Positions 2,148-20,978 of a stretch of DNA of 64,000 bases are shown piece by piece (position 1 is the stretch's first letter; each line of letters begins with the position of its first letter). A model generated the notes under the pieces. It ran no database searches, had not been told where the DNA came from, and was given only the letters and a program-made list of their open reading frames with translations. This DNA is from Candidatus Heimdallarchaeota archaeon. GTDB lineage: Archaea; Asgardarchaeota; Wukongarchaeia; Wukongarchaeales; JBHIFL01. The stretch is from contig JBHIFL010000004.1 in the NCBI GenBank assembly GCA_046761065.1, positions 15,687-79,686 on the forward strand, given 5' to 3'. The translations under genes and the position numbers were made by a program.

Positions 2148-3191
2148 TCAAGTGTTATAAGTTGCAGGAAAGCAACTAATTGCGTTTGTTCCCTCATGTC
2201 CTATTTGAGCGTAAGAAGGCACAACTGTGTTAGGCAAGATTACTGAGTTAATGAGTTTCGCATTCTTTCCTACCATAACCCCAAAAAGGACAATTGTGTT
2301 CTTGACACACACCCCCGCTTTTAGTTTTACTCCGGCCTCTAAATAACCATACGGGCCCACTACACAACCAGGATCAATGAAACTGCCTTGGCAGACTAGG
2401 GAGGGAGGAATGATATGGGCATCCTTCGCAAGCTTTCCTCGAATAGAATGCCCAATTTTGTCTAGAAATATCCGATTTACTGCAAGATAATCGTTAATAT
2501 TATTTAAGGTTATGAAGGAGTTTATAAGGATTCCATAAACCCGTTTACCCCTTTCAATCGTTGCCTGAATTGCATCTTGTAGTTCATATTCCCCTCTGTT
2601 TGACCTTTTCACCTGTCCCACTTGATCTAATATCTCATTGTTAAATACATAAATTGGTCGGCAAGCAATATCACTTGGAGCTATCTTGACAAGTGGTTTT
2701 TCAATAATATAAGAGACCCGTCCATCACTTTCTAGACGAACAAGCGCCGTGTCTATCGGTTTGGTAAGCTTGATTTTCTGAAGACACAATGTAATAGACG
2801 CGTGACGCCTTTGATGTTCTCTTATGAGATGCTTGACCTGATTCGAAGAAAATAGCGAGTCTGCCGCGCACACTAAAAAATCGTGCTCCTTACCAAGGAG
2901 CTTTCTAGCCTCCTTCACGGCATGCGCCATACCTAATGGCTCGTTCTGTACCACATATTGAATTTTCATTCCTCTTAGGTTTTTTCCTTCGAAATACGAG
3001 AATATTTGGTCTCGCAAATACCCAACAACTATGATAACGTGGCGGATCCCAGCTCCGTGTAACATGGAAAAAATACGTTCTAGAAAAGGTATTCCAGCCA
3101 CCGGAAGCATTGGTTTGGGAATAACTTCAGTCAATGGGCTCATTCTTTTTCCATGACCTGCCGCAAGAACTAATGCGGTTTCAATTACCAC
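2148..3191 (-). CDS. Sugar-phosphate nucleotidyltransferase with C-terminal left-handed beta-helix
   Basis: LAAGHGKRMSPLT...PKPMLPV signature, EPLGMA, IIEKP, RGEYELQDA, and hexapeptide repeats at the C-terminus. Confidence 0.92.
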   Translation of the reverse strand: MVIETALVLAAGHGKRMSPLTEVIPKPMLPVAGIPFLERIFSMLHGAGIRHVIIVVGYLRDQIFSYFEGKNLRGMKIQYVVQNEPLGMAHAVKEARKLLGKEHDFLVCAADSLFSSNQVKHLIREHQRRHASITLCLQKIKLTKPIDTALVRLESDGRVSYIIEKPLVKIAPSDIACRPIYVFNNEILDQVGQVKRSNRGEYELQDAIQATIERGKRVYGILINSFITLNNINDYLAVNRIFLDKIGHSIRGKLAKDAHIIPPSLVCQGSFIDPGCVVGPYGYLEAGVKLKAGVCVKNTIVLFGVMVGKNAKLINSVILPNTVVPSYAQIGHEGTNAISCFPATYNT

Positions 3192-3505
3192 TACGATCCC
3201 TCGTAGCCTTCTTCACTATCAGAGGAGGGTTCTCATCTCTCTTCCGATTTTGCCCAATTAATAGCAATTGACCTCCTTTTAATTCTTCACTGCAGCTTAA
3301 ACATGAAATTTGCTAAATTATTCATGAATGAGAGTGTGATTTATCAAATTTGGATCGAGACTCCTCATCTTTGCGTGGAGTTCGAAGAGAATACGGTTCC
3401 CTCAAAATAATCCCAAACCCTCTTATAAGATTTGAAGTGAATATTGATCCTCTAAGACAGTTCGCAAGGCCCAGAAGGGATTTAGGGGCTATTACGGTAT
3501 TGTAT

Positions 3506-4393
3506 TCATCGAGGCACAAAAATAAGTTCACAATCTGCTTCTCTTAGCTGGCGAGTCTTGGCCTCCTTCACTTTGATATTCTTTCCTGTTGCCGCTAAAT
3601 AAAGCCCATCGATGATCCCTTCCACGAACTTACATTGAACCGTTTGACCAATCTCCGGACAAAACACACACCCCTTAATCGTGGTTAAAAACTCTTTTGG
3701 GGTGCGTGCCAACATTTGAACACTAGTGGTACCGTTCGTGGCAATATCTATGACAGCCGAGACGAAGTTAGTAAATTCGTCATGATCCAATGGGTATTTC
3801 GGATTAATTTCATCCTTAAGGAGGGATGCAATATCACGCGCAAATTCTGCCCCTGCCTCATAGATAATACGTCCGGCAACCTGCGGCATGAGCGTCTCAT
3901 GGACCTTCTGCGTAAATTTGTTGAGAAGAGCGCTAGGAATATATGTAAACCGCACCGCTGCGTGAACCAATTCCCTCCAACGAACTTCGTGGCCTTCAAG
4001 TATCCTACCTACCCGGTTCGCGAGTTCCTTGACGGCAGGAAGAATATAGTCGCGATTTGCCCCAGTTCGAAATATGGCTGTAAGCAATCCACGGTATCCC
4101 GCCTTTGCGACAATAAAAAACCCGGTTTGCGTTTCGACAAAAGCCGCATCGAGCTCTCCACGTTGTATTTCACTTCTTACCGATTTCCCGAGGGTATCGA
4201 CTCGTGATGAAACGACAGCAAGCTCTTCATTTTGAATTTGACGTCCACTTGGGCTGTACCCCAATATAGGGAACCCTTCGCGGCTTGTGATCGAGATCAC
4301 GTCAATATGGGAGACCCGGGAACTGAATTCCTTCAGAGCCTCCGTCAATCGCTCTGTAATCACAGGCGACGGTTTACTGCCAGATTGTTCCAT
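3506..4393 (-). CDS. Roadblock/LC7 domain fused to a V4R domain
   Basis: N-terminal ITSREGFPI...ELAVVS...GELD...ETQTGFFIV...GLLTAI roadblock pattern. C-terminal IIYEAG...CVFC...CKFVEGIIDG...VKE...C V4R pattern. Confidence 0.8.
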   Translation of the reverse strand: MEQSGSKPSPVITERLTEALKEFSSRVSHIDVISITSREGFPILGYSPSGRQIQNEELAVVSSRVDTLGKSVRSEIQRGELDAAFVETQTGFFIVAKAGYRGLLTAIFRTGANRDYILPAVKELANRVGRILEGHEVRWRELVHAAVRFTYIPSALLNKFTQKVHETLMPQVAGRIIYEAGAEFARDIASLLKDEINPKYPLDHDEFTNFVSAVIDIATNGTTSVQMLARTPKEFLTTIKGCVFCPEIGQTVQCKFVEGIIDGLYLAATGKNIKVKEAKTRQLREADCELIFVPR

Positions 4394-4753
4394 CGTATTT
4401 CTCTCGCTAAACCTCTCAATTTCATAAATCTTATAAAAACGTACGATTTAAATGTGTTTATTCTAAAGTCTAATGCCCCTTTTCGGGAATTGTCAGATTA
4501 AATCATATTCAACAATCCCTTAAACCGAATTATCGAGACAAATAAGTCGCTATGCAAATCTGATTCCGAAGAACTTTATCAGAATTCCGCAAAGACTCTT
4601 ATAAAAAAGTTATAGGGAATATAAAGTTGTAGACTTCCTCTTAAAGAAATTAAAACATCTAGAAAAGTCTTTACCATTCAAACTTGATGATTACACTGAA
4701 AAAAAGGGTGCTACTTGGTTGGTCGTTTTCAAAGCTTCAATAGGTGTATTGTG

Positions 4754-5191
4754 TCAAAACACAATTATCCTGTTCCCCCCCTGTTTTTTTGCTTTTCGAA
4801 GGGCTTTTTTAGCCGATTTAAATAGGGGAATTTGCGTCAAATCACTTGTTTCACTAATTCGCATGTGAAAAGACGGACCAAAAGCCACTCCAATACTAAT
4901 AGTGACAGGAAGACCAAGTTCCCCACCAAGTAAATATAATTTTTTCCGGAGAGTTTCTAAATCTTCCAAGAGTTTTTGGGGGTCAGGAGCTGAGAAAAAC
5001 AGGACTGCTTCCTCAGTTCCTCGCTGGTAATTTATGCCTCGCAAATGGGTTCCATGGTGTTTTGATAGGATCTTGGTCACTAACTCTGTTAATAAACCTG
5101 TCACGACGTTAGGTTTGTACTTAGGCCATCCAGCCTTTTTTGTTATTTCCCCAAAATGATCCAGGTCAAGTATTATCACTCCTTGTTGCAC
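4754..5191 (-). CDS. Standalone GGDEF/mCpol-like palm-domain nucleotide cyclase
   Basis: IILDLDHFG, RGTEEA in place of GGDEF, VTISIGVA, and AKKALRKAKKQGGNRI. The likely start is GTG 5191, with GGAGG just upstream; the ORF track starts it at 5260. Confidence 0.8.
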   Translation of the reverse strand: MQQGVIILDLDHFGEITKKAGWPKYKPNVVTGLLTELVTKILSKHHGTHLRGINYQRGTEEAVLFFSAPDPQKLLEDLETLRKKLYLLGGELGLPVTISIGVAFGPSFHMRISETSDLTQIPLFKSAKKALRKAKKQGGNRIIVF

Positions 5192-5199
5192 GAAAGCCC

Positions 5200-5345
5200 C
5201 TCCGTGAGGAGTTTGCATCCACACCGCTGAGTATGTATCATTTCGCAAGGGATTCACCACGAAACGAATGGGTCATTACTGCCCCAAGAATCTTCCATCT
5301 CGACTGGGCCAGGAATTGCACCTAGCTGTCCTGCGAGGGACGCCG
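5200..5345 (-). ncRNA. Candidate structured ncRNA between the RAMP-HD and GGDEF-like genes
   Basis: Five consecutive minus-strand hairpins: GTCC-ctcgca-GGAC (5341-5328), CTAGG-TGCAATT-CCTGG (5325-5309, T-loop-like), CCCAG...TTGGG (5308-5283), TCGTTTCGTGG-tgaatccc-TTGCGAAATGA (5267-5238), CTCC-tcac-GGAG (5211-5200). Confidence 0.4.
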
Positions 5346-6216
5346 AAGCAATAGATTGAGGAGATGTGTGGATCTGCGCCAAAAACAGGATCCAATTGGC
5401 GACGCCAATCAGGTGATTACGGAGGGTTTCAGTAGGGTGGGTTTTTGAAGCGAGAAAGTGGTGGAGTTCGTTGGAATGATAGGTGAAGGAATAGAGCTGG
5501 TAGACAGAACGGTGGGCGACCTGTTCGAGGTGATTTATAAGGTGATGAGTGTTGATGGGGGCCATCTTCCGCTGGGATGTTGGGAGGTGGAGAAGGCGAG
5601 CATAGCGAGAGGTTCGGGAGTCGGCCTTTTGGAGGAGCTGCAAGTCATGGTTCTGCGGATGAATGTTACACGCGTGATGGTTTTCACATAACCACTGGAT
5701 ATATGGCTCCGGAATCGTAAGTGGGTGACCCAATTTGGAGGGATGGAGATTGGTGTCCACGAGATTGTGGAGGAGGGCAGCCATGACGAGTTGACGTTCA
5801 TGTTGAAAGAGATGGGGAGGCAACCCCTTGAGAATACGAAATTGTGGTCCTAACAGAGGAGACGCCTTTGAGGAATAACAACTTTTTTGGAGGATCCAAC
5901 GCAGGGCACCGTAGCCCCATATCGTGAATTGTCCAACGTACTGCAGCTGCAGAAAGGTTTTGAGTTTGCGGCGCGCCTGTTTGGAGGTGTGGGCCTTGAA
6001 ATCGAGGTGAAGGTAGCCCAGATGGGCGCGTCGGTAGAGCGGGAATCCATGGACGCCTTGTTTCACCACCAGCGTTGTATGACATAAATTACGGGTAGGC
6101 GCCTCGAGATTGATGGAGGGGCGATTTGAGATAATTCCTTGGGCGCCGCATAGCCGTAGGAACCGAGATTTCGCAACAATGGTTGTTAGTGTTTCGGCAA
6201 TGATTCTCACAATCAT
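5254..6216 (-). CDS. Cas5-like RAMP fused to a circularly permuted HD domain (ARAMP-like); HD Asp changed to Asn
   Basis: RAMP glycine loop VGQFTIWGYGALRW, followed by AALLHN, NHH, LQKADSRTSR and a C-terminal TLRNHL helix. This is the permuted HD order seen in Cas10-type HD domains. Confidence 0.65.
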   Translation of the reverse strand: MIVRIIAETLTTIVAKSRFLRLCGAQGIISNRPSINLEAPTRNLCHTTLVVKQGVHGFPLYRRAHLGYLHLDFKAHTSKQARRKLKTFLQLQYVGQFTIWGYGALRWILQKSCYSSKASPLLGPQFRILKGLPPHLFQHERQLVMAALLHNLVDTNLHPSKLGHPLTIPEPYIQWLCENHHACNIHPQNHDLQLLQKADSRTSRYARLLHLPTSQRKMAPINTHHLINHLEQVAHRSVYQLYSFTYHSNELHHFLASKTHPTETLRNHLIGVANWILFLAQIHTSPQSIASASLAGQLGAIPGPVEMEDSWGSNDPFVSW

Positions 6217-6587
6217 GTGGCTACCTCTCCTTCTTCAGCGCCGCGTTGCGGCTCTTGAATCTGGGCCAGCCAATGCGTATAGGCCGCGAAAGCTTGGTCA
6301 AGTTCGGCTTTGAGGGGTGTCACCGTGGTTCTTGGGGTTAGTAGATAGGCTTCGCCGTTCCAAACTCGCTCATAGGTTTGTTCCACCTTTTCAAAGGTGT
6401 TTGCCTGAAGGAATTGTTTGTCCGCGCGCCACGCCTTGGCGGCGCCGACGTCATTACAGCGTTCAAGGCAATGGAGGAGGAAACCCAGCTCTATGGGGTC
6501 AAGAAGGCCGGCAGGAAATTGGAGGTGAGAAGAATTGAAACAGTTGAACCCGGTGAACACGGATAAAAAGGCTAGGCTCCATGGGAT
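6213..6587 (-). pseudogene. 5'-truncated Cas7-like RAMP fragment
   Basis: LDPIELGFLLHCLE...VGAAKAW resembles the Cas7 C-terminal helix plus glycine loop. ATGA overlap with the RAMP-HD gene. The frame closes upstream at TAA 6590-6588, too short for a full Cas7. Confidence 0.5.
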
Positions 6588-6965
6588 TTAAAAGGCTTAG
6601 AACTGGAGACATACATGCGTATCACAGGTATCAAGGATAGAATCCTCGCTAATAAATACCGAAAAACAGCTTGGTCGGCTGTGAAATATCTTCTAGATCA
6701 TTATAAGGACATCGTGTTTATAGGAGTTGGTATTCCATACAATAAGGAATTTATTGGCTTAGATGAAATCGCGCGGATTGGAGATCAATTAGCAAGTTGG
6801 GATTGGGAGCTCCAAGTGTACGTGCTTGACTATCGGCCCGAATTCCGTACGAAAAGGCTCACACACCCTTCTTTCAAGAAGATACAACACATAAAAACAT
6901 TACTAAACGGGACAGGGCTCACTACCGTCATTTGCCAAACGAACAGAGGTCTCATCGGTCCTTAA
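6585..6965 (+). pseudogene. 5'-truncated radical SAM (PFL-activase-like) C-terminal fragment
   Basis: In-frame DLKGLELETYMRITG...GVGIPYN...QVYVLDYRPEFR...VICQT..G.IGP. No CxxxCxxC motif; in-frame TAG at 6573-6575. Confidence 0.7.
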
Positions 6966-7039
6966 GTTAAGGTAGGAAGATTATGATCAATATCCTAGAC
7001 GATAGCATTTAATCGACTCGATCTTCATTTGTTGACAAC

Positions 7040-8194
7040 CTATTTCCCTTTGATATAATCTAGGAGCTCCAAAAGAATAGAGAGAGACATACGATACTTT
7101 GTAGGATCGATCATCCCGGTTATATTCCAGATAATGATGTGACGGAGGCCTACACGATAATATTCTTCTAAATGCTTTATGATATCATTTCTAGTTCCAT
7201 GAAGAAACACCGCTTCCATCACTTCAGGATTGATTAGGTCTAGCATCTTGAGAGCTGCATTACGATCATAGTTTGTCGGAATATAGTCTATAAGGGGGTT
7301 GATATTGGTTTTTCCGAGATACAATGCAAGGGGATGGTTCATGCCCGCTTGTTCAAATAAATAACTCGGGCTGATCAGAGCCCATGCCTTTGCCATCGGC
7401 GTGTTAAAGAGTTTGTGGCAAGCTTCATGCTCTTCAGCGAGAATTGTTAGCGCCCACATGGCTGGAATGAATTTTTGCGGATCACGCTCAGCTTTTCCCA
7501 TAACAGCATGAATCACCTTTAATTTCTCAGCATAATCTTTCACAGATAGCATTGTTGGAATCCAGCCGTCTGCAAGCTCCCCTGTGATCCGTAGCATACG
7601 TGGTCCATGTGCCCCTACTAAAATAGGAGGAGGATGATCCTTTTTATACGGCTCAAGAGCAAGAACCGCATTTTTCATTGTCCAATATTTTCCATCGAAC
7701 GAGAGTGCTTTCCCTGGATTCTCCCAAAACTTTCGGATTATCCTCAGACTTTCTTCTAACCGTCCCACTGGCTCCTTGAAGCTCATCCCATAAGGGATAA
7801 TGTTCTCTGCTTCACCAGCTCCCATGCCTAAAATAAACCGACCTTTTGTCAAATGGTCTAGAGTAAGTGCTGTCTGAGCTAAGATAACTGGATGTCGACG
7901 AATCGACTCAGTGACTGCTGTTCCTAATTTTATCCGTTGAGTTTGTGAGGCATGAGCGGCTATAAGGGAAAACGTGTCAAAGAAGATATGGGGGGATGGT
8001 TGGAACATCGCTACGGGGATTATATCGGGGGTCCAGATGGATTCTGGAATCCATCCCATGAGATGATCAGGATACCACATAGCATGGTATCCCATCTCGT
8101 CGATTCGCTTAGCCACTCGTAGCGAATTTTCTAATGGAGGTAAGATGGGTGGAGGCACTCCAATCTCCAAATTTGCTAGTTCCACGTTTATCAT
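7040..8194 (-). CDS. LLM-class (luciferase-like, probably F420-dependent) oxidoreductase
   Basis: WYPDHL, LGTAVT...RHP..LAQ..LTLDHL.KGRFILGMGAGE, GAHGPRML..TGELADGW. Confidence 0.93.
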   Translation of the reverse strand: MINVELANLEIGVPPPILPPLENSLRVAKRIDEMGYHAMWYPDHLMGWIPESIWTPDIIPVAMFQPSPHIFFDTFSLIAAHASQTQRIKLGTAVTESIRRHPVILAQTALTLDHLTKGRFILGMGAGEAENIIPYGMSFKEPVGRLEESLRIIRKFWENPGKALSFDGKYWTMKNAVLALEPYKKDHPPPILVGAHGPRMLRITGELADGWIPTMLSVKDYAEKLKVIHAVMGKAERDPQKFIPAMWALTILAEEHEACHKLFNTPMAKAWALISPSYLFEQAGMNHPLALYLGKTNINPLIDYIPTNYDRNAALKMLDLINPEVMEAVFLHGTRNDIIKHLEEYYRVGLRHIIIWNITGMIDPTKYRMSLSILLELLDYIKGK

Positions 8195-8539
8195 GTCTCC
8201 TTGGATTAAAAATACTATACCCAGAAAGGAAAGCCTGTATTTATTATTAGTAACATCAATTATGTTAAGGCTTTACCAAAGATTACCTTTCTTAGGTCAT
8301 TAGGTATTAGGTGTTAGTCTGACTCAATTCGATTCACTGCGGTTTGTTTGTATCGTTTAATAATTAGAAATTGATTAGAATATTGAATAATAAATAATAA
8401 GGTCACATGTAGAATGAATACTCTCGCTAAGTTGTATAAGTCAAATAGCAGAGTTTTTTCGTTATCATCTTAACTCAGTGAATTGAGACAATAGCATAGC
8501 CAATAACTTTAAGGAAGCAGATATTCTGCAGCAGAGGAG

Positions 8540-8779
8540 CTATTTTTCGCTTTCGACTTCTTTTTCTGCTGGACCTGATCCTGCAATCTTCTGATAGTGC
8601 TCGTCACACAGCATCACACGTTGAAACGCATGAGGAAGCACCCTAATTTTAGCTGGCTTGCCACATCCCTCGACCGTGCAGAGACCACCACCGAATCCAA
8701 TATGAATTTAGGTGTTTATGTCAGCACCGGTCCACACAACAGGCTTTTCTTCTTCTTCATTTGACAAGGAAATCACCAT
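8540..8779 (-). pseudogene. Small C-x4-C...C-x2-H zinc-finger protein with an in-frame TAA (not in ORF track)
   Basis: MVISLSNEEEEKPVVWTGADINT*IHIGFGGGLCTVEGCGKPAKIRVLPHAFQRVMLCDEHYQK...EK*. The stop is at 8710-8708. GGTGA lies upstream of an alternative TTG start at 8767. Confidence 0.55.
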
Positions 8780-8962
8780 TGACCTACTTGAGTGCAGCGA
8801 TCCGTTCAATTCCCAAGGTGTCTATAATGTACACTCCATAATACAATAATAAGTCTTGGTGATTAAACTCCACGTTTTGTACGAAATGGATTTTTAGTAT
8901 TCTAGAATGATTGCCGTTTAAGAATGTTAGAAGGAATTTTATGCAAAATTGTAGAGGTTTAG

Positions 8963-9667
8963 TTATTCAAAGATCCGTTTTTGCAATGTGATTAGTTGGG
9001 TTTCAGCGTTATACCCTATAAAACCAGCATTTGCGAGGTCATGCACGGCTGCAAGAACCACTGCAGGCTCATAACCAGAAGTTTTTGTGATTTCCTGGCG
9101 TGTCATGCCAACAGCTCCTTTGGCGCCATGCAAGAGCCAGAGAATTCGAATGTGCGGTCGAGCAGCATAGATATCTTCGAGCAGAGCAACATAAAGCGAC
9201 AACAGTTGCCGCACATCCAATGTTGCTTCTTCTTTTGCTTGGATCGATTTGAATTCTGTAGAGATACTTTCAAACTGTTTAAGTAACGCGTCATAATCCG
9301 CGGCTTTTTTGTGGAGTTCATCCTCTAACGAGCTTTTCTCGGTAGTTAATGACTTTCTTTCGTTTTCAAGCGCTTTTGATCGGTTTTCAAGTGTCTTGAT
9401 TTTGTCATCCAAGTCTCGAATAGTTGCTAACTTTTCTTCTAATTCACGACTCTGTTTTATGACCAGATCACGAAGTGGAGTGATTTTGGAATGGACATCC
9501 TGAAGCGACTGTGTTGCAGTTTCTATTGATGACAAGATCTCTTCTAGTTCGGGAATTTCACTCAAGGTGGAACGCTCCTGAGAATGTGCTTTTTGTGATG
9601 AATTTGTTTCAAGAAATAGAAGTGGACCTATACTTAAAACATTATCGGGTTTGGCGGAGACATGCAC
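8963..9667 (-). CDS. Coiled-coil protein with C-terminal winged helix
   Basis: Long heptad region followed by RILWLLH...MTRQEITKTSG...VLAAVHDLANAGFIGY. Confidence 0.8.
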   Translation of the reverse strand: MHVSAKPDNVLSIGPLLFLETNSSQKAHSQERSTLSEIPELEEILSSIETATQSLQDVHSKITPLRDLVIKQSRELEEKLATIRDLDDKIKTLENRSKALENERKSLTTEKSSLEDELHKKAADYDALLKQFESISTEFKSIQAKEEATLDVRQLLSLYVALLEDIYAARPHIRILWLLHGAKGAVGMTRQEITKTSGYEPAVVLAAVHDLANAGFIGYNAETQLITLQKRIFE

Positions 9668-20195: not shown

Positions 20196-20978
20196 ATGGT
20201 TGTATTTGATGGGTTAATTTTGACGATTCTCGAGGATTTTGGTCCAGCTCCAATTGTAAACCTCTCAAAAATGGACGAAGCTACAGCTACTCATCTAAGT
20301 ATCACTGGATTGACTATCGTGGGACTAGGAAGTACTCGGGTTTATCTTCGCCTGTTTGGGTCGATTCCCGTGCCGGATTTTCCAGACAGCGAAGCGATGC
20401 CCTTTATTTTTTCCGTCTCAGGAGAAGACTCTGCGGATGAACGAATCATACAACAAGGAAGGGATTGCGTCATCTTTTTGCTCTTCGCGTCTTCTAACAG
20501 GGCTTCTGTTTATGCGACACATCATGAGGTTGAGAAAATCCTTAATGAGCATGTAAAGAACTTTCAAACTAGGGAAGACCTTTCCCAAGCGGCTATGGAG
20601 GTAATCCTTGGCCAGATCAACCAGATTGAACCCCCTAGCATACAAGAACTGCCATTAGAAGAACAAGAAATCGCAATGGAGAGAAAAGCAGGTTTGGATT
20701 TCTATCAAGTTTTGCCAGATGGAGAACTCCAAGAAACTTCTCTTTCTGATGGACTAAAATCGCCCATCCTGATAATAGTAAATCACGTAAATCAGTTAAT
20801 TCTCAAATTAACCCTTTCAGAGGACATATCAGAACGGTACGATTATCTAGCCGCACGCGCAGCAAATCGGGTGAATGTCGAAAGGCTAAGGAATGCATAT
20901 CGAATTAGAGATATTGATGATCCTTTGGAAATCGACATGTTACTAGAAAAAATCAGAACAGGATTCAAAATAAGTTAA
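20196..20978 (+). CDS. Longin/uDENN-like domain plus putative gelsolin-like domain
   Basis: LILTILEDFGPAP...FIFSV...DER...RDCVIFLL. C-terminal FYQV..DGEL...ILIIVNH...R..YLAARAAN. Confidence 0.55.
   Translation: MVVFDGLILTILEDFGPAPIVNLSKMDEATATHLSITGLTIVGLGSTRVYLRLFGSIPVPDFPDSEAMPFIFSVSGEDSADERIIQQGRDCVIFLLFASSNRASVYATHHEVEKILNEHVKNFQTREDLSQAAMEVILGQINQIEPPSIQELPLEEQEIAMERKAGLDFYQVLPDGELQETSLSDGLKSPILIIVNHVNQLILKLTLSEDISERYDYLAARAANRVNVERLRNAYRIRDIDDPLEIDMLLEKIRTGFKIS

Follow-up and report, generated by a model that had tools for sequence, protein, structure and literature searches.

A repeated unit of about 190 nucleotides at the 3′ end of a RAMP-like gene pair in an Asgard archaeon: a candidate cognate RNA that carries a ribosome-binding site

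In a stretch of 64,000 nucleotides (nt) from contig JBHIFL010000004.1 of Candidatus Heimdallarchaeota archaeon (hereafter the window), we examined a segment, positions 5200-5345, which an earlier note had proposed to be a structured RNA beside genes for RAMP proteins, possibly replacing a CRISPR array. The segment lies on the minus strand, the operon strand of the locus. We found that it belongs to a repeated unit which forms the 3′ terminal module of a multi-copy pair of open reading frames (ORFs), here called ORF1 and ORF2, and which is present approximately 45 times in this Asgard genome. From the position of the unit and from its partner proteins we put forward, with confidence evenly divided for and against, that the unit serves a proliferating ARAMP-like element as its cognate RNA module and at the same time acts as a translation leader. 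The same two lines of evidence suggest a guide or scaffold function for the unit. Most copies have lost the genes and stand alone.

Copies of the unit and the gene pair that they terminate

A covariance model, R1, was built from 25 copies of the unit. Its sole match in the window (181 bits, E 2.7e-55) encloses the limits first proposed and replaces them with 5165-5356. The unit measures about 190 nt, and the window copy 192 nt. The following features of the locus are needed for the description below (aa, amino acids).

5165-5356, minus strand: R1 unit
5171-5184, minus strand: conserved 3′ end of the unit, consisting of a Shine-Dalgarno sequence AAGGAG (5184-5179) and an 8-nt spacer UGAUAAUA (family consensus CGAAAAAC)
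5168-5170, minus strand: position of the usual start codon, CTT in the window copy, in frame with a GGDEF-like ORF
5254-6216, minus strand: ORF2, 320 aa, with a predicted RAMP-fold N-domain (residues 1-113), a predicted helical Cas10-HD-like C-domain (138-284) and a disordered tail (287-320) encoded by the unit
6213-6560, minus strand: remnant of ORF1, an ORF of 115 aa holding the C-terminal ~103 residues; homology begins near 6526

The R1 search of the window's own genome, an Asgard assembly of 234 contigs, gave 48 matches at E ≤ 0.01, 37 of them below 1e-10. The units are dispersed over more than 25 contigs and lie kilobases apart. In blastn searches of the same genome, the query 4001-7200 detected approximately 17 further copies of an element spanning about 5173-6526, most of them truncated at the 5′ end, and the query 5100-5420 detected 33 further copies of the segment 5173-5350. 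The 3′ boundary, at window positions 5163-5179, was common to all copies in both searches. When R1 was applied to 150 other genomes of the phylum, a match was obtained in G010 only, and there only once. This genome and a single metagenome contig are the other carriers of the unit, and in both ORF2 adjoins it. An ORF-based locus search returned three metagenome loci, one of them reaching the unit, and no loci among genome contigs. A scan of genome contigs with a 17-nt degenerate motif gave at least 119 stretches, which are chance matches, since none of the 80 loci examined was confirmed by R1. The Rfam cmscan that the earlier note had suggested as a check was carried out on 3000-9000 (E ≤ 1) and placed no family on the unit; its sole row was a chance long non-coding RNA on the plus strand (E 0.75).

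The well-kept units all end with ...CAAC AAGGAG CGAAAAAC, and the start codon follows immediately. In the window's own genome the GGAG peak lies at -12 from ATG, which is the same spacing as in the unit. The genome's usual spacer occurs without the unit's spacer sequence, so this sequence belongs to the unit. An ORF of at least 80 aa begins at the end of 15 of the 44 units considered, namely 12 of the 16 best-scoring units and 3 of the 28 others. Nine of these downstream ORFs were scanned for families and comprised GMP synthase, PhoU_div, an Obg-like GTPase, a cyclophilin-like protein, the C-terminal subunit of fumarase, a class III aminotransferase, the ribosomal protein L18Ae, an MptE-like kinase and one protein without a family. 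The downstream genes are unrelated, share no common pathway and differ at every copy. Solo units that precede genes have kept their full length (170-184 bits).

In full copies of the gene pair ORF1 precedes ORF2, and the intact copy on contig C36 has the order unit, ORF1 (555 aa), ORF2 (313 aa), unit. The window's ORF1 remnant matches residues 451-553 of this complete ORF1 with 72% identity (tblastn). The unit overlaps the last 32 codons of ORF2 and continues for approximately 85 nt beyond them; the segment 5200-5345 covers the last 31 codons of the 320-aa ORF together with the first codons of a nominal 168-aa ORF (4754-5260). An ORF2 core or remnant was found directly upstream of 12 of the 44 units, the remaining 32 being solo. 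All of the 12 family-A ORF2 matches that reach the C-terminal third adjoin a unit. The window copy is itself decayed, with ORF1 cut to 115 aa, HN in place of HD in ORF2, one hairpin of the unit (P3, see below) weakened and the usual start codon absent.

ORF2 gave no match in Pfam, NCBIfam or PADLOC; PADLOC returned nothing for any of the four window ORFs submitted, and a sequence-profile search of the PDB with ORF2 returned nothing meaningful (E 0.5-0.95). Its family is small, with 90 cluster representatives at E ≤ 0.001 among 1.84 billion. The AlphaFold2 model of ORF2, computed from 25 sequences, had a predicted local distance difference test (pLDDT) score of 84.3 and replaced a model from 16 homologues (pLDDT 56), with which Foldseek was uninformative. 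Residues 137-302 of the model align to residues 2-284 of Csm1 (Cas10; 6ifk_A) over 142 residues with a root-mean-square deviation of 3.2 Å and a VIA-align Z of 10.2, caution being due since a Z of 10 is not safe for a helical domain. Residues 1-114 resemble RAMP subunits of Csm, Csf, Cmr and type VII complexes as well as Cas6 proteins (Z 5.5-8.7), and for this N-domain Foldseek gave RAMP rows with probabilities up to 1.00 and E of at least 1.8e-3. The best RAMP chain was 9g9a_G (Z 8.7, 302 residues), a similarity that does not separate the subunit classes; the length of this chain is presumably that of Csm4. These comparisons support, for the predicted fold, a RAMP-fold domain joined to a Cas10-HD-like domain, and the label 'RAMP-HD' given to the protein beforehand holds at this level.

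Among 25 homologues of ORF2, H150 is invariant and D151, H158 and H181 are nearly invariant. HD-family scores were weak: Pfam HD was matched in one paralogue only (E 0.051), and the Atlas HD rows, at 0.80, stayed under the naming bar. Around residue 151 the window copy reads LLHNLVD, compared with LLHDLVD in 15 of 16 close relatives. Should the domain be an HD nuclease, the window copy may lack activity. The tail of ORF2 (residues 287-320, SPQSIASASLAGQLGAIPGPVEMED...) had a pLDDT of about 33 and is conserved only in the subfamily whose gene enters the unit, the distant homologues ending directly after the last helix. On the other side of the segment, the head of the following ORF, MVNPLRNDTYSAVWMQTPHGGAFVQQG, which had been attributed to a palm gene, is a translation of the unit; the same peptide precedes an XPD-type helicase at C36, and its frame is open in only 11 of 37 copies. 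As the earlier note had supposed, neither peptide looks like part of a domain, and both are by-products of the nucleic-acid element.

The intact ORF1 at C36 combines an N-domain that resembles nucleases with a SAP domain and a RAMP domain; its match to Pfam RAMPs is weak (E 0.0096, below the cut-off). Distant relatives of ORF1, from genome G040 and from contig C12, score above this cut-off (27.8 and 23.1 vs 22.1 bits) and gave weak NCBIfam rows for the Cas7 proteins of type III, type IV and gRAMP. For residues 40-180 of ORF1, Atlas structure rows named DpnII, Card1_endonuc and DUF559 at TM 0.5-0.6, two of the rows reaching the naming bar. By eye, a D..ExK-like motif can be seen in the N-domain, for which Pfam gave no match.

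No CRISPR array was found near the window locus, nor, in line with the absence of an array suspected beforehand, did a k-mer scan (20-mers, at least 4 copies, spacing 50-100) detect one in the assembly, a result to be read with the fact that such assemblies often lose arrays. No Cas1-like ORF was noticed in the loci inspected, where no search aimed at Cas1 was made.

Some further observations concern individual copies. A second repeated segment of about 160 nt in the same genome, found at C36:20291-20450 and 20479-20639 (a tandem duplicate) and at C50:12278-12488, contains a TATA-like box (ATTTAAATA). Two units, among them the one in front of the intact ORF1, have this segment immediately on their upstream side, and the segment may serve as promoter, or form the 5′ end, of the full element. 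On contig C115 (10.4 kb, locus L198), which carries seven R1 matches on one strand between 1649 and 9049, these are interspersed with small toxin-antitoxin-like ORFs (PIN-like and small antitoxin-like, by eye), and the contig looks like an island rich in decayed units. One metagenome homologue of ORF2, the 195-aa protein P0030 (51% identity over 40% of ORF2), has a precomputed PF01609 (DDE transposase) annotation and may be a chimeric gene call or an insertion beside a remnant. On account of this annotation the 320-aa protein was considered as a DDE transposase, a candidate that was rejected by the fold results.

Conserved hairpins of the unit

A nested structure of eight helices was written from pair probabilities and column statistics and was then tested on alignments. 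Alignment A2 is a structure-blind MAFFT alignment of 25 copies, A3 a model-fitted alignment of 46 copies and A6 a MAFFT alignment. The helices of the window copy are listed from the 5′ end of the unit.

5340-5351, minus strand: hairpin P1, UUGC-UUCG-GCGU (family consensus CUGC-UUCG-GCAG)
5304-5333, minus strand: long hairpin P2, with lower stem CAGG/CCAG, upper stem GCUAGG/CCUGGC and loop UGCAAUU
5227-5303, minus strand: long-range helix, UCGAG (5303-5299) with CUCAG (5231-5227), enclosing P3
5246-5288, minus strand: P3, CUUGGG/CCCUUG, with two U-U mismatches in the window copy
5272-5269 with 5259-5256, minus strand: inner stem of P3, CCCA/UGGU, flanked by AUGA and GA (85-88% of cells paired)
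5188-5224, minus strand: outer helix GUGUGG/UCGUGC, enclosing P5, with GTG 5191 within it (85-89% of cells paired, mostly G-U)
5211-5197, minus strand: hairpin P5, CUCCUC-ACG-GAGGGG, whose 3′ arm contains GGAGG, 7 nt before GTG 5191

In A2, 85.2% of the cells were paired, compared with 82.8% in shuffles (0 of 500 reached the observed value) and 35-46% when the partners were slid. Changes on both sides were found in 42 cells (20.3 ± 3.8 in shuffles) and in 20 of the 39 pairs (11.9 ± 2.1, with 0 of 500 shuffles reaching the observed number). Similar results were obtained with A3, in which 82.2% of the cells were paired and both sides had changed in 112 cells (55.2 in shuffles) and 31 of the 39 pairs. 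The number of pairs with a both-side change and the number of further pair types each exceeded all 500 shuffles. G-U cells were in excess over A-C cells (182 vs 56), and pairing reached 85.2% on the sense strand vs 71.9% on the opposite strand; the excess of G-U cells means that the structure fits the sense strand better than the opposite one. RNAalifold applied to the MAFFT alignments recovered only part of the structure. Judged from these alignments, the local hairpins P1, P2, P3 and P5 are real and conserved, and the global fold of the unit is provisional. The earlier note's reading of a structured element within a RAMP module is supported in part, namely by its conservation, its compensatory changes and its association with RAMP genes. 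The stems named in that note are present in 5200-5345, and G-U pairs are frequent there.

In P1, all four pairs change on both sides in A3, and 79.8% of the cells are paired in A6. The upper stem of P2 shows both-side changes in 5 of 6 pairs in A3 and in 4 of 6 in A2, with a mean pair probability of 0.39-0.47 over 25 copies; compensated forms among the copies include CCAGG/CCUGG, CCGGG/CCCGG and CUAGG/CCUAG. P2 corresponds to the first of two T-loop-like hairpins proposed for this segment, AGG-TGCAATT-CCT (CUAGG-UGCAAUU-CCUGG, 5325-5309), and is among the best-supported helices. The second of them, GG-UGAAU-CC, did not survive as a helix of the family model, where its bases fall into two other helices and the upstream stop codon; 83.8% of its cells still pair. 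The long-range helix has 88.9% of cells paired in A6 and 90.4% in A2 with few compensatory changes, and a competing pairing, CUCG/CGAG, has 80.6%.

In P3, all six pairs change on both sides in A2 as well as in A3, and the compensated forms include CUCGGG/CCCGAG and CGCGGA/UCCGCG. The stop codon of the 320-aa ORF (5256-5254) lies inside the P3 region. The region of the inner stem has a likeness to a k-turn, by eye only. In P5, both-side changes were found in 4 of 4 pairs in A3, other copies having CCCCGG..CGGGGG and CGCCUC..GAGGCG. The GGAGG before GTG 5191, noted earlier as sequestered in a stem, does lie in the 3′ arm of this covarying hairpin, but it is not conserved as GGAGG, and its use as a ribosome site is not supported; the conserved site is the AAGGAG at 5184-5179. 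UGCUUC, near the 5′ end of the unit, can pair with GGAGUG of the ribosome site (82.8% of cells, mean probability 0.15-0.16), for which covariation is uninformative because GGAG hardly varies. A hammerhead-like core and HUH-type nuclease motifs were also considered by eye, and both were dropped as the motifs do not fit.

Related systems and distant gene pairs

The closest known systems to the gene pair of the window are ARAMP of Asgard archaea and HRAMP of Haloarchaea, which are RAMP systems derived from type III that have no array (Makarova et al. 2020 CRISPR J and 2019 FEMS Microbiol Lett, as cited in PMC8730458). In the passages of two papers that deal with them, they are said to consist of diverged Cas5 and Cas7 homologues with nucleases that are mostly HNH or PD-(D/E)xK (PMC8730458; PMC12669027); ARAMP is found there in many Asgard archaea, often with a distinct Cas1 (PMC8730458), and the mechanism of both systems is termed enigmatic (PMC8730458; PMC12669027). 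The gene pair of the window resembles them in a diverged, distantly type III-like Cas7-like RAMP protein, in the absence of an array and in its Asgard host, and may also share with them a Cas5-like RAMP protein and an extra nuclease of the PD-(D/E)xK kind. Distant ORF1 relatives, through their Pfam RAMPs matches, show the Cas7-like RAMP protein typical of such systems. The window family differs in that its ORF2 carries a Cas10-HD-like domain and in that it comes with a repeated unit of about 190 nt, whereas the passages on ARAMP and HRAMP just cited name no RNA. A literature search for an RNA tied to ARAMP or HRAMP, whose reach did not extend to the original descriptions of these systems, found no report, and the unit family is not described in the repeats section of Wu et al. 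2022 (PMC8813620) or in the parts of that paper returned by a term search. A further difference is that the window gene pair is multi-copy with many decayed copies. Some Asgard systems of this kind reportedly may be mobile elements of a type not yet known.

The CRISPR RNA (crRNA) of type III systems has an 8-nt 5′ handle that comes from the 3′ end of the repeat and is held jointly by Cas10 and a Cas5-type subunit. The ORF2 fold matches both Csm1 (Cas10) residues 2-284 and the RAMP subunits of Csm, Cmr, type IV and type VII complexes, and the 8 nt between AAGGAG and the start codon may be compared with the 8-nt handle. Unlike type III systems, the gene pair has no Cas10 palm or cyclase domains (ORF2 matches only the N-terminal part of Csm1 and ends at residue 320), no Cas11 and no array; the place of the 'repeat' would be taken by about 190 nt and that of the 'spacer' by the sense-oriented start of a host gene. 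The units also differ from a CRISPR array in that they are dispersed, kilobases apart, rather than short repeats alternating with spacers of similar length.

OMEGA systems comprise the omega-RNAs of TnpB, IscB and IsrB in IS200/IS605 elements, in which the nuclease gene shares its 3′ end with a conserved non-coding module that extends to the end of the element. The likeness to the unit is one of position only: the last codons of ORF2 lie within the unit, and the unit stops at the shared boundary 5163-5179 with the variable flank directly next to it. Many solo or truncated copies are a further similarity. The proteins are different, with RAMP and HD-like folds instead of RuvC and no OrfB/TnpB match for ORF1 or ORF2 in Pfam or NCBIfam. 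Moreover, neither TnpA nor insertion sequence (IS) ends were found, the unit ends in a ribosome site fused to host start codons, and Rfam gave no omega-RNA match. The unit also resembles cis-regulatory leaders, being placed in the 5′ untranslated region directly before the ribosome site of 15 of 44 downstream genes; it differs from riboswitches and ribosomal protein leaders in lacking an Rfam match, in its overlap with a coding region, in belonging to a repeated element that carries genes, and in the absence of any pathway common to the genes that follow it.

A multi-copy gene pair approximately 30% identical to the window family was found in genus g18 (genomes G040, G020 and G030), where a RAMP protein of 271 aa is paired with an ORF2-like protein of 271 aa. 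After each of both genes lies a conserved unit, different from that of the window and about 125-150 nt long, with 23, 2 and 8 matches in the three genomes, respectively. RNAalifold on this unit gave 20 pairs and no compensatory ones, because the core is nearly invariant. A blastn search with it against the window genome returned chance-level rows only. A conserved RNA module joined to such a gene pair in two distant subfamilies would make the question of what guides ARAMP and HRAMP proteins, if anything does, a testable one.

By eye, the arms of a 5′ hairpin of the g18 unit change together, and a TATA-like box lies about 30 nt upstream. G030 (76% complete) has its 8 matches and no ORF2 match, and may hold solo units only. 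In the window's own genome there is also a single-copy, distant paralogous locus (C12:12800-16250; locus L196, 3819-7240), in which two small ORFs resembling the ORF1 N-domain are followed by a RAMP gene (282 aa) and an ORF2-like gene (302 aa). The R1 model found no unit in this locus, and blastn no recognisable g18 unit. Past its stop codon lie approximately 110 nt whose final sequence, GCGGTTGAAAAC, is reminiscent of a CRISPR repeat's 3′ end.

Proposed role of the unit and alternative explanations

If the unit acts as an RNA, it would be transcribed jointly with ORF2 or, in solo copies, from a promoter lying upstream, and transcription would run on into the downstream gene. We propose that this RNA could be the cognate ligand of both RAMP proteins of an array-less, type III-derived (ARAMP-like) system. 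The RAMP domain of ORF2 would hold the 3′ part of the unit, as Cas5-type subunits hold the crRNA 5′ handle, and the Cas7-like ORF1 would line the RNA beyond this part. The unit would thus play the role of CRISPR repeat or scaffold, and the start of the flanking gene that of the spacer. An optimally spaced ribosome site within the unit would make insertion before a gene tolerable, and after ORF1 and ORF2 had decayed selection would keep the unit as the leader of the downstream gene. Insertion made harmless in this way by the ribosome-binding site of the unit would explain why solo copies before genes are the best kept. The exact fusion of the unit to housekeeping start codons is unusual for any repeat family and suggests either that a selfish element has a new way of inserting without harm or that the archaea most closely related to eukaryotes have a further, new level of post-transcriptional control.

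A number of results speak against such a role. The segment does not fold better than shuffled sequence: 5200-5345 folds at -48.2 kcal/mol, compared with -43.2 ± 3.6 kcal/mol for dinucleotide shuffles (z-score -1.37, equalled by 22 of 200 shuffles). The full unit (5165-5356) has a z-score of -0.44, with 62 of 200 shuffles folding equally well, and 24 family copies have a mean of -0.42, none being below -2, so a thermodynamic signal is absent. The structure was derived from the same sequences on which it was tested, the shuffle controls are inflated by the relatedness of the copies, and nearly all copies come from one genome, which leaves few independent lineages. The long-range helix, the GUGUGG helix and the inner stem of P3 show hardly any covariation, and comparable scores are reached by alternative pairings (5′ UGCUUC with the ribosome site, CUCG/CGAG, and a pseudoknot between GAGAUGG and the P3 loop). 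On the protein side, the top 50 Foldseek rows for ORF2 are almost all class 1 effector subunits with a best E of 1.1e-3, none being at or below 0.001, and the Z of 10.2 of the C-domain is below the safe level for helical domains. A guide that has the same sense as the downstream messenger RNA (mRNA) is unable to pair with it. Because the g18 unit does not adjoin start codons, the leader role does not hold in general. The element showed no transposase or integrase.

The arrangement at the 3′ end would also be explained if the unit were a mobile translation leader only, that is, the outward end of a selfish element which provides a ribosome site and perhaps RNA stability, with hairpins that serve mRNA stability or processing and RAMP proteins that do not bind it. 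This is possible, though we hold it to be rather improbable. It accounts for the AAGGAG, 8 nt and start codon at 15 of 44 copies, for a spacing equal to the genome's own optimum, for the best-kept copies preceding genes (12 of 16 vs 3 of 28) and for downstream genes that are unrelated housekeeping genes. However, a ribosome site requires only about 15 nt, yet solo copies retain all of the ~190 nt with compensatory changes. Nor would a leader be expected always to overlap the end of ORF2, as the unit does, or a distant RAMP pair (g18) to have its own unit away from start codons.

A bolder version of the cognate RNA proposal, which we consider unlikely, is that a remnant of a type III CRISPR system has become an RNA-guided homing element. 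The unit would be a giant repeat-like handle whose last 8 nt form the crRNA 5′ tag, and the adjoining start of the host gene would supply the guide with its first bases. Those copies of the chromosome in which the gene start lacks the unit would be cut by the Cas7-like and Cas5-HD-like proteins together with the PD-(D/E)xK-like domain, a mismatch with the tag marking unoccupied copies as non-self. Repair from the occupied copy would spread and retain the element, and the built-in ribosome site would keep the essential host gene expressed. If true, the unit would be the missing RNA of the array-less ARAMP and HRAMP systems, and an OMEGA-like logic would have arisen independently in class 1 proteins.

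We also considered that the unit acts at the level of DNA, as the end or attachment site of a mobile element recognised by a recombinase as folded single-stranded or double-stranded DNA, solo copies being empty or decayed sites. The units on both sides of the gene pair at C36, the sharp 3′ boundary common to the copies and the 5′ truncation of many copies fit such a site, and folded DNA would tolerate G-T wobble as well. Yet neither a recombinase or transposase nor a target duplication was seen, the ends of the unit show no inverted symmetry, and the strong strand asymmetry together with an optimally placed ribosome site points to a sense transcript. In four metagenome DNA runs from one study, one contig per run spanned 4300-7400 without joints, in the occupied form only, which is weak evidence as contigs drop rare variants. 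Taken together, a DNA-level site seems to us quite unlikely.

The folding energies described above, no better than those of shuffles in 24 of 24 copies, raise the question of whether the unit has a functional structure at all. The copies could be diverged duplicates of the 3′ end of ORF2, with a covariation that results from their relatedness and from a structure chosen on these very data; the shuffle controls take no account of phylogeny, and shuffles already pair 77-83% of the cells. We consider this very improbable, given that solo copies without the ORF still retain the approximately 85 nt beyond ORF2 and that P2, P3 and P5 show many different compensated pairs. In addition, all 500 shuffles fall short of the observed values in the two measures that relatedness inflates least, and slid controls drop to 35-46%.

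One claim of the earlier note concerned the ORF that follows the unit in the window.

4754-5170, minus strand: GGDEF-like ORF, outside the repeated element

The Pfam GGDEF match of this ORF (E 2.4e-4) scores 21.3 bits, less than the cut-off of 23.8, and begins at profile position 34 of 161. The ORF is not found beside other copies of the unit. A riboswitch-like control of this putative cyclase by sequestration of GGAGG before GTG 5191, for which one could cite the existing GGAGG-bearing hairpin and the absent usual start codon that would make GTG 5191 usable in the window copy, can be practically dismissed, since the unit precedes at least nine unrelated gene families with a different gene at every copy, GGAGG is not conserved in the hairpin, the GGDEF match is below the Pfam cut-off and starts only at position 34, and no Rfam family matches. 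In-frame alternative starts are GTG 5179, 5191 and 5260, all inside the unit, and the ORF may be 5′-truncated or read from a GTG within the unit. By eye, RGTEEA occupies the position of the GGDEF/GGEEF motif and the first ~33 profile positions are absent; the domain may be truncated or degenerate. Farther downstream, an ORF of 295 aa (3506-4393, minus strand) has a Roadblock/LC7 match at the Pfam cut-off (23.0 bits) and a weak V4R match, a pairing typical of Asgard regulatory GTPase partners.

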